Positions 678-1,702 of a stretch of 39,720 nt of DNA are shown here, one piece after another. The position numbers and the translations under genes were made by a program. The stretch lies in the IMG/VR virus record IMGVR_UViG_2706794676_000012; one strand, written 5' to 3'. The DNA is from a virus (taxonomy: Duplodnaviria; Heunggongvirae; Uroviricota; Caudoviricetes). The notes under the pieces were generated by a model. It had not been told where the DNA came from and made no database searches. It saw only the letters and a list, made by a program, of their open reading frames with translations. The first letter of the stretch is position 1, and each line of letters opens with the position of its first letter.

Positions 678-1415
678 TCATTCACTCTCTTTCAAACCAG
701 TTTTAACTGTTTGTGGTTTTGGGTAAGGCTGGACTTTGAATAGCTTTGTGTTAAGGCGTTTTCTGGCTCTCTTGTCCAGAAACCGGATGTAACGAAACTG
801 ACGGAATTTATGAACACTGGCTCTGTCGATATTAGCCCGCAGATGTTCACCTCGCTGTCCTCCTCGTTTGATTGCATTCTTGCAAATCTCGTGATACCAC
901 TCGCCATCAAGTTCATAGAATGTTGTTTCATGACTGCCTACATAATCAAAATTGCTTGCCTGGTACACGACACCAAGACAGCCACAACGCTCATCTGCAA
1001 ACGACTGAACCCACTGCACCTGCGGATAAAGTTGTCTGATTAGTTTGAGCGCGTAACTGATTGCCCTTGATTCGGAGTTTCTCGGCATACAGTCATGCAG
1101 CCATAACCGGTTAAGCTCCATATATTCGCGGTTCTGCGTGCCAGTTACGACGCGTGCACCATTGTTTGGATTAAGGGCATAACCCCATTGCATTACGCCA
1201 ACCAGCTCCCGTTCTGAAAATATGCCCAGATGAAGGTAGGAATTATTTACGAAACGATGGCTGTAATGTTTATTGACGACGACCAGCCGGGCCAGCCAGC
1301 AACTTATTGTCTCAACCCGTAACTCACGGGAGCCATAACCGACGATATTGTCGTTATAGTGAATAAGTTCAGGCGTGCTGATGATACGGGATGTAACTTG
1401 CTTTCTGTTCCCCAC
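678..1415 (-). CDS. mom: Mom-like DNA modification protein (start uncertain)
   Basis: Last gene before the phage end, immediately downstream of and overlapping a Com-like zinc-finger ORF, as in Mu com-mom. The ORF is open to 1610 but that would cover all of com; the best internal start is GTG at 1415 preceded by AAGGA (1425-1429). Call is by position and size (~245 aa), not by a remembered Mom sequence. Confidence 0.6.
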
Positions 1416-1569
1416 GACAGGATTTCCTTGTGTATGTGGGGTGCTCTGTGGCGCTCTGAGATGTGATTTGATTGAGGGTTTTACAGCGCGGACATTTAAC
1501 TTCCAGATAACTGAAGCTGGCTCGTGCCAGTAGCTTGTTACAATGTCGGCACCGTATGTTTCGATACAT
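1369..1569 (-). CDS. com: Com-like zinc-finger translational activator of mom
   Basis: 66 aa [34 protein letters not shown]... with a C-x2-C...C-x2-C finger and the same N-terminal pattern as Mu Com (M-x-x-I-R-C-x-x-C-N-K-L-L). ATG at 1569 preceded by AGGAGG; the TTG at 1614 used by the ORF track is less likely. Confidence 0.75.
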
Positions 1570-1616
1570 GGCCGCATAACCTCCTGCTTTGTTGTTGATA
1601 TCTTTATCACTCAATC

Positions 1617-1702
1617 GATCGACAAAAACGATCGATTTGATTTATTTAATTGATACAACAAATAACACGAAATGTCATTAGCGAAAATTTATGAGTTTGA
1701 TC
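1617..1702 (-). promoter_or_regulatory. com-mom upstream regulatory region with three clustered GATC sites
   Basis: GATC at 1617-1620, 1630-1633 and 1699-1702 within ~130 bp upstream of com, in an AT-rich region. In Mu, three GATC sites upstream of the mom promoter mediate Dam/OxyR control. Confidence 0.4.

Follow-up and report, generated by a model that had tools for sequence, protein, structure and literature searches.

The sequence analysed here, hereafter the window, is the 39,720-nt stretch of IMG/VR record IMGVR_UViG_2706794676_000012 (Caudoviricetes), which as a whole represents a complete Mu-like transposable prophage of Escherichia coli in reversed orientation. At the very right end of this prophage lie two genes, com and mom, which very probably constitute a Mu-type operon with Com-gated translation of mom and probable Dam/OxyR-gated transcription. 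The right-end position, the gene order and the overlap of com with the 5′ end of mom are shared with phage Mu, and also with D108 and SfMu. The module is already known, being a textbook operon that RefSeq annotates with the same coordinates, and by every sequence test applied its products are members of the Mom and Com families. Judged from the sequence, the Mu-type translational switch is also present; the Mu-type transcriptional control region is only partly matched, with two of the three GATC sites and no box for the C activator (C-box).

We take the product of mom to be a DNA adenine modification enzyme, a tRNA(Gly)-dependent adenine aminoacyltransferase. The 310-residue open reading frame (ORF) that occupies 678-1610 on the minus strand matches the Pfam Mom profile PF25680 through its residues 96-298 (E 1.6e-77), with a score of 260.2 bits against a cut-off of 27.1 and coverage of the entire profile (positions 1-202 of 202). 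Identity with Mu Mom is 77% across the aligned part, and the Mu Mom structure (PDB 8bv8, 232 residues) is matched with E 2.4e-123, residues 5-233 of the query aligning with residues 4-232 of the chain. Relative to the 231-residue form of Mu Mom the window protein is 14 residues longer, comprising a 12-residue C-terminal tail and a 2-residue N-terminal insertion. Pairwise alignment shows that S124 and W48 of Mu Mom (241-residue numbering), both of which have been mutated experimentally (PMC13219725), are kept in the window protein, within the sequences NSES and ETISCWLAR.

Directly upstream of mom, com encodes a protein with an N-terminal zinc ribbon of layout CxxC-N15-CxxC, which matches the Pfam profile PF10122 with 48.2 bits against a cut-off of 22.9. 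It is 44% identical to Mu Com and keeps all four cysteines; these residues (C7, C10, C26 and C29) are invariant in eight lineages. The com stop codon at 1371-1369 gives a 47-nt overlap with the 5′ end of mom. The original prediction, made from the sequence alone, of a Com-like zinc finger protein overlapping a Mom-like frame is thus borne out, as are its coordinates for com. A search of PDB sequences with Com found no match, and neither did an NCBIfam scan of Mom, Com and a neighbouring 86-residue protein. In the annotation of the NCBI Prokaryotic Genome Annotation Pipeline (PGAP), Com carries the name 'DNA-binding transcriptional regulator', which does not fit a translational activator that binds RNA.

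The start codon of mom is a GTG inside com (1415-1413, in the mom frame), the same start as in phage Mu. This codon and its AAGGA Shine-Dalgarno (SD) sequence had been singled out beforehand, with the suggestion that Mom-family alignments be used to fix the N-terminus. Mom proteins from nine diverged lineages do have a common aligned N-terminus, MG(K/N)..., and residue 4 of 8bv8 aligns with residue 5 of the 245-residue window protein; Val66 of the long window ORF lines up with the Mu GTG (IVGKEKK). The RefSeq coding sequences in identical prophages have the same coordinates, both for Mom (WP_000528246.1, 245 residues, 678-1415) and for Com (WP_014334043.1, 66 residues, 1369-1569). In Mu the GUG start sits in the stem of the translation inhibition structure (PMC6483171), and loss of the 10 extra residues of the ATG-started Mu Mom annotation is tolerated (PMC13219725). 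The Mu reference record NC_000929 (Mup55) begins Mom at this ATG, 10 codons upstream of the published GUG. From the comparative data, the Mu literature and the RefSeq coordinates we conclude that the GTG 1415 start is correct and already on record.

Two adjacent RNA hairpins at this start codon form the conserved core of the translational switch. To describe them, com-mom loci were gathered from viral contigs and species-representative genomes, and 14 distinct lineages were aligned for covariation; the Neptunomonas loci L050 and L093 were excluded, since two ATGs are in frame there and either could be the one that pairs in the CCAU/AUGG stem. A hairpin sequestering the SD sequence, for which the original prediction had proposed a folding check, does exist at 1441-1410. 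The GUG start lies in its 3′ arm, as it does in the CCCAC/GUGGG inhibitory hairpin of Mu, and in a fold of minus-strand RNA 1458-1405 the 35-nt start-codon hairpin has a minimum free energy (MFE) of -12.6 kcal/mol (z -2.46). The window stem has 6 bp and a 20-nt loop with an inner helix on the SD sequence, in which GG (1427-1426) is paired with CC (1421-1420), whereas the Mu loop is 11 nt; the SD sequence itself is GGAG in Mu. All 14 lineages have the stem paired, four of its six pairs being invariant and one showing a C-to-U wobble, and the outermost pair covaries (C-G in eight lineages, U-A in five and U-G in one).

Directly 5′ of the inhibitory hairpin, as in Mu, is a short hairpin with a hexaloop that we regard as the Com target. 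The published Com recognition element, defined by systematic evolution of ligands by exponential enrichment (SELEX) and by selective 2′-hydroxyl acylation analysed by primer extension (SHAPE), is CC(N)2-3GAG in a hexaloop closed by a C-G pair (PMC6483171), and the window hairpin carries CC-ACA-GAG, of the form CC-N3-GAG that is shared with Mu. Compensatory changes are found at all four of its pairs, 92.9% of the cells in the alignment are paired, and its covariation score was matched by none of 500 shuffles. The layout of two hairpins is reproduced by MFE folds in most lineages. An Rfam scan of positions 500-2300 (E<=1) returned only a chance match to IS102 (21 bits against a cut-off of 46) and no curated mom-leader family.

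The two hairpins share one base. In the Com hairpin, C1441 (column 18 of the alignment) closes the stem on its 3′ side, and in the inhibitory hairpin it stands outermost in the 5′ arm; it covaries with its partner in each structure. Such sharing would fit the published model in which binding of Com destabilises the inhibitory structure. It may amount to a concrete structural switch by which Com opens the stem, a reading that we put forward tentatively.

By analogy with Mu, expression of the module can be pictured as follows. A single transcript from the 1570-1858 intergenic region would carry both genes, com being translated from ATG 1569 and mom from GUG 1415, 47 nt before the com stop. In the free messenger RNA the GUG would be locked in the 3′ arm of the CCCCAC/GUGGGG hairpin, with the AAGGA sequence partly paired within the loop. 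The Com zinc ribbon would then bind the adjacent hairpin (1454-1441, loop CACAGA). Because C1441 can pair either in the Com hairpin or in the outermost inhibitory pair, Com binding should weaken the inhibitory stem and so expose the SD sequence and the GUG. The Mom produced would, as in Mu, modify adenines of the phage DNA by glycyl-tRNA-dependent N6-carbamoylmethylation, protecting the DNA from restriction.

Transcription of the operon is probably controlled from a GATC-containing region upstream of com. Three GATC sites are present, at 1617-1620, 1630-1633 and 1699-1702 (48-133 nt upstream of com), and their positions had been given correctly beforehand. As a cluster they are statistically modest. 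The window contains 115 GATCs, below the shuffle figure of 148; the Poisson probability of three or more in a given 134 bp is about 0.008, and only one other triple in the window is equally tight. The cluster is bordered by GATC-free stretches of 1.4 kb and 1.1 kb, and the pair 1617/1630 is the only one in the window with a spacing of exactly 13 bp. The stronger argument is conservation in relatives, which applies to the two proximal sites only.

These proximal sites lie in a perfect palindrome, AATCGATCG-N7-CGATCGATT, that aligns base for base with AATCGATC-N9-GATCGATT of Mu, where the 13-bp GATC pair is likewise contained in the upstream palindrome AATCGATC...GATCGATT, and it could also be aligned with 15 other lineages. 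The full arrangement GATC-18-GATC-13-GATC is found upstream of com in Mu, in the D108-like locus L039 and in L035, L036, L090, L091, L100, L101 and L103, with L099 having spacings of 19 and 13; only the 13-bp pair is found in the window, in the viral contigs L032-L034 and in Edwardsiella anguillarum (L089). On this alignment, sites 1617 and 1630 are homologous to Mu GATC2 and GATC3. The Mu GATC1 position, 18 bp upstream of the pair, reads ttgtatc in the window. The third window site is 69 bp further upstream than the pair, beyond a single OxyR footprint, and is present only in window-type upstream sequence and in L024, L016-type relatives having a different sequence there. By the same alignments it is not homologous to Mu GATC1; the likeness of 'three GATCs' to Mu is partly coincidence, and the conserved element is the pair.

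A role for OxyR at this pair is suggested by several lines of comparison. The best match to the OxyR tetramer consensus, 13 of 20 specified positions, is the joint top score in the window (three sites tie), and the best score in the three-GATC region of Mu, where OxyR is reported to act, is also 13/20. Dam/OxyR control of Mu mom is reported by way of secondary citations (PMC3378877, PMC2909390). GATC pairs 13 bp apart also occur within OxyR half sites of P22 gtr, and at both gtr and E. coli agn43 such a pair lies in an OxyR dimer half site overlapping the promoter region, where methylation blocks OxyR (PMC2909390). Both of these systems are phase-variable, and gtr has four GATCs in two pairs together with three half sites, in contrast to the window, which has no second pair. 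By analogy, Dam methylation would keep OxyR off the palindrome (1613-1637, reaching to about 1654), to which OxyR would otherwise bind. We know of no phase variation of mom. The original proposal of Mu-style Dam/OxyR control therefore stands for the proximal pair, given its homology to GATC2/GATC3, its 13-bp spacing, the palindrome and the OxyR score; it does not extend to the 1699 site, nor to the C-box and -35, which are missing.

The region between this pair and com is short. From the last GATC to the com ATG there are 51 nt in the window and 78 nt in Mu, where the stretch holds the C-activator box (ATAACC...), a poor -35, a T6 run and a -10, TAAGAT. The segment of about 30 nt with the ATAACC-type box, -35 and T6 run is present in Mu, L035, L039, L091, L092 and L099, and in variant forms in L090 and L100. 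In its absence the Dam/OxyR palindrome abuts the presumed -10, for which TAAAGA is the tentative candidate in the window. If TAAAGA is the -10, the palindrome spans about -43 to -19, and bound OxyR would be predicted to occlude RNA polymerase directly. L032-L034 and L089 share with the window the short spacing (51-55 nt from proximal GATC to com ATG), the lack of an ATAACC-type C-box and the same CCCCAC/GUGGGG stem. They differ in having a near-consensus -10 (TATACT, TATAGT, TAGATT) 7-9 nt after the pair, and L032-L034 have a leader hairpin that is not seen in the window. Elsewhere in the prophage, the lys upstream region keeps a box like that of Mu Plys (AAATCCTGCCCC, compared with ATAATCCCGCAC in Mu) and the mom upstream region has none; a comparison of the sequences upstream of mom and of lys for a common motif that might be a C site gave none.

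Nothing was found that contradicts the com-mom identification, the GTG start or the inhibitory structure, but a number of observations weigh against the wider reading of a Mu-type control circuit. At the RNA level, the inhibitory stem is near-invariant in doubly coding sequence, where conservation alone is no proof of structure; what supports it is the covariation of the outer pair and of the neighbouring hairpin. A longer 96-nt fold is no better than shuffles (z -0.26), and only the local hairpin is. The window Com hairpin, unlike that of Mu, carries a C1453.A1442 mismatch and shrinks to 2 bp in the MFE fold; in L011, an otherwise identical relative, this position is U-A. At the DNA level, only two GATCs stand in place of the three that Mu spaces at 18 and 13 bp, and the OxyR match is to a degenerate consensus in an AT-rich region. 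The C-box/-35 segment is absent from the window group as it is from L032-L034 and L089. The -10-like hexamer varies even in close relatives (TAAAGA in the window, compared with GAAAGG, GAAAGA and AGCAAA), and a sigma-70 promoter scan of the minus strand from 500 to 2200 returned no site; inspection by hand of the conserved -112 to -44 block revealed no convincing -10/-35 candidates.

Of the explanations that compete with ours, the one that survives best is that the GATC cluster is no OxyR/Dam switch, the palindrome serving something else and the count of three sites being coincidental. The palindrome could bind another dimeric regulator, such as the phage's own activator of the C/Mor type, it could be a SeqA or other Dam-linked site, or it could be a weak terminator for antisense transcription on the plus strand; a scan does mark 1613-1637 with its T-rich tail as terminator-like on that strand. 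The short control region leaves no place for a separate activator site, the palindrome being the sole dyad near the -35, and the C homolog of the prophage, at 29233-29655, has only 40% identity with Mu C. Conservation does not extend to the third GATC, and for a window of this size a Poisson estimate from the density of sites gives about three chance occurrences of a GATC triple within 86 bp, compared with two observed. We nevertheless consider this explanation unlikely. The 13-bp pair and its flanking AATC/GATT align with GATC2/GATC3 of Mu, for whose mom Dam/OxyR control is reported, and the pair is retained in about 15 otherwise diverged lineages. Against the OxyR consensus it also shares first place in the window, with the score that the Mu region itself reaches, and in P22 gtr OxyR half sites are marked by GATC pairs of this 13-bp spacing (PMC2909390).

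One possibility, which we put forward tentatively, is that in the short-class modules, including that of the window, the mom promoter has lost its C-activator box, so that the OxyR palindrome lies over the -35 and spacer. Transcription would then need no C and be gated by OxyR/Dam occlusion alone, with dependence on Com added at translation; compared with the classic four-layer Mu circuit this would be a simpler wiring, resembling agn43 and gtr. The absent C-box/-35 segment, the weak and variable hexamer and the failure of the scan to find a promoter-like site could instead point to a transcriptionally decayed module, in which com and mom are intact but the promoter was lost with the C-box deletion, leaving mom without expression from a promoter of its own. 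Such decay is improbable. In the 26 window-like viral loci examined, both ORFs, both RNA hairpins, both SD sequences and the GATC palindrome are all present in intact, conserved form, and the locus is carried by 233 genomes. Mu Pmom is itself a very poor promoter (PMC3378877). Moreover, the good -10 sequences of L032-L034 and L089 indicate that the short layout is a working alternative design.

The start codon admits one further challenge. The only in-frame ATG, GTG or TTG codons between 1610 and about 1285 are GTG 1610, ATG 1577 and GTG 1415, and ATG 1577 lies 8 nt upstream of the com ATG, which is why the original prediction had set it aside. That Mom is a long protein of 299 residues from ATG 1577 (or 310 from GTG 1610), translated across all of com in a different frame and with GTG 1415 merely an internal valine, could appeal to the 65 open codons that precede GTG 1415 in this frame and to the strong AGGAGG (1585-1580) just before ATG 1577, but is scarcely credible: the spacing of this AGGAGG is 10 nt to the com ATG and only 2 nt to ATG 1577, in L016-type relatives (Mom 96-97% identical) just 27 codons are open upstream and none of them is a start codon, L052 has a stop one codon upstream of the homologous GTG, the Mu frame is open for only 10 codons, the Pfam Mom domain starts only at residue 96 of the long ORF, and both RefSeq and the Mu literature use the GTG. 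The 310-residue frame returned by a naive ORF search is an artefact.

Variant arrangements of the mom leader were seen in other relatives. Loci L053-L086 and L096-L098, labelled Serratia and a 'Sphingomonas' isolate, encode a Mom 66-70% identical to that of the window and have no com. Between about -130 and -1 of mom they carry a terminator-like hairpin and, downstream of it, a conserved one, cacgaGCACaCC...attGGaGTGC, predicted to sequester the SD sequence, and mom starts with TTG or ATG; translation of mom may be gated independently of Com in these loci. In L102, from a metagenome-assembled genome (MAG) of the Oceanospirillaceae with an ATG start, the 3′ arm GCGC of the Com-type hairpin doubles as the 5′ arm of an SD-sequestering stem, GCGCC...GGCGC. 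In L036, L090 and L101 (Symbiopectobacterium, Pantoea persica), also with ATG starts, the Com-hairpin loop CUCCG can pair with the SD sequence CGGAG. The alternative structures in L102 and in L036/L090/L101 are mutually exclusive. L088, an Enterobacteriaceae MAG, has no com between mom and a GATC cluster about 80-115 nt upstream of it, and its GATC spacing is 13 then 18, the reverse of the Mu order.

An identical 1.25-kb com-mom stretch is present in 233 of 5426 complete E. coli genomes. The end of the prophage (TG...) is at about 546 of the window, and the host flanks vary among genomes with the identical prophage (the tcyL side, ypdB, bcsA), as expected from random Mu-type transposition. The PGAP gene list for an identical prophage runs through transposase, AAA ATPase, Gam, Mor/C-family activator, lysis, head, tail and gin-like recombinase to com and mom. 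In contrast to Mu, gin is not adjacent to com; about 3.4 kb of cargo genes (1826-4958) lies between the gin-like recombinase and com, a place where Mu has nothing (Table 1). PGAP also annotates a 'tRNA-OTHER' in the identical prophage L006 (21643-21722, corresponding to about 21690-21770 of the window), whereas ARAGORN found no tRNA anywhere in the window. Six runs of N, of 250-268 nt each and 1528 nt in total, mask parts of the prophage (8401-8650, 11227-11494, 12744-12993, 15215-15464, 26947-27206 and 29739-29988), and none of them touches the com-mom locus.

Table 1. Features of the com-mom module and of its surroundings, in window coordinates.
Feature	Position	Strand	Remarks
mom coding sequence, GTG start, 245 residues	678-1415	-	Pfam PF25680; 77% identical to Mu Mom; RefSeq coding sequence
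com coding sequence, 66-residue CCCC zinc ribbon	1369-1569	-	Pfam Zn_ribbon_Com PF10122, E 7.5e-13; RefSeq WP_014334043.1
Translation inhibition structure	1410-1441	-	CCCCAC (1441-1436) pairs with GUGGGG (1415-1410); SD sequence in loop
mom SD sequence, AAGGA	1425-1429	-	9-nt spacer to GTG 1415; SD duplex -5.4 kcal/mol
Com-target hairpin (predicted)	1441-1454	-	4-bp stem G1454-C1451/G1444-C1441; hexaloop CACAGA (1450-1445); directly 5′ of inhibitory stem
com SD sequence, AGGAGG	1580-1585	-	10 nt before ATG 1569; SD duplex -6.2 kcal/mol
Tentative -10-like TAAAGA(T)	1601-1606	-	Weak; placed by alignment with Mu TAAGAT
Perfect palindrome AATCGATCG-N7-CGATCGATT	1613-1637	.	Contains GATCs 1617 and 1630; 9-nt arms 100% complementary; presumed Dam-sensitive OxyR dimer site
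Best match to 37-bp OxyR tetramer consensus	1618-1654	.	13/20 specified positions
Third GATC	1699-1702	.	Centre of unrelated imperfect inverted repeat 1684-1711; outside conserved core
IS66-family transposase, C-terminal part (left flank)	1-459	-	Pfam DDE_Tnp_IS66, E 5e-29; truncated by prophage end at about 546
Divergent ORF, 86-97 residues	1826 or 1859 to 2119	+	Cargo; no Pfam or NCBIfam match
DUF826 gene	2287-2541	-	Cargo between gin-like gene and com
DUF1378 gene	2577-2759	-	Cargo between gin-like gene and com
DUF6645 protein, 684 residues	2904-4958	-	Cargo between gin-like gene and com

Taken over all the loci compared, the data show that many enterobacterial Mu-like prophages have kept both the Mu translational switch, with its Com hairpin and start-codon hairpin, and the 13-bp GATC pair. 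For the window itself the result has little importance beyond annotation quality, where it confirms the RefSeq GTG start of Mom, and the short control region without a C-box is a minor variant rather than a discovery. The subset of prophages that lack the C-activator box of Pmom, this one among them, would nevertheless offer a natural test of how much of the multilayered control of mom in Mu can be dispensed with.

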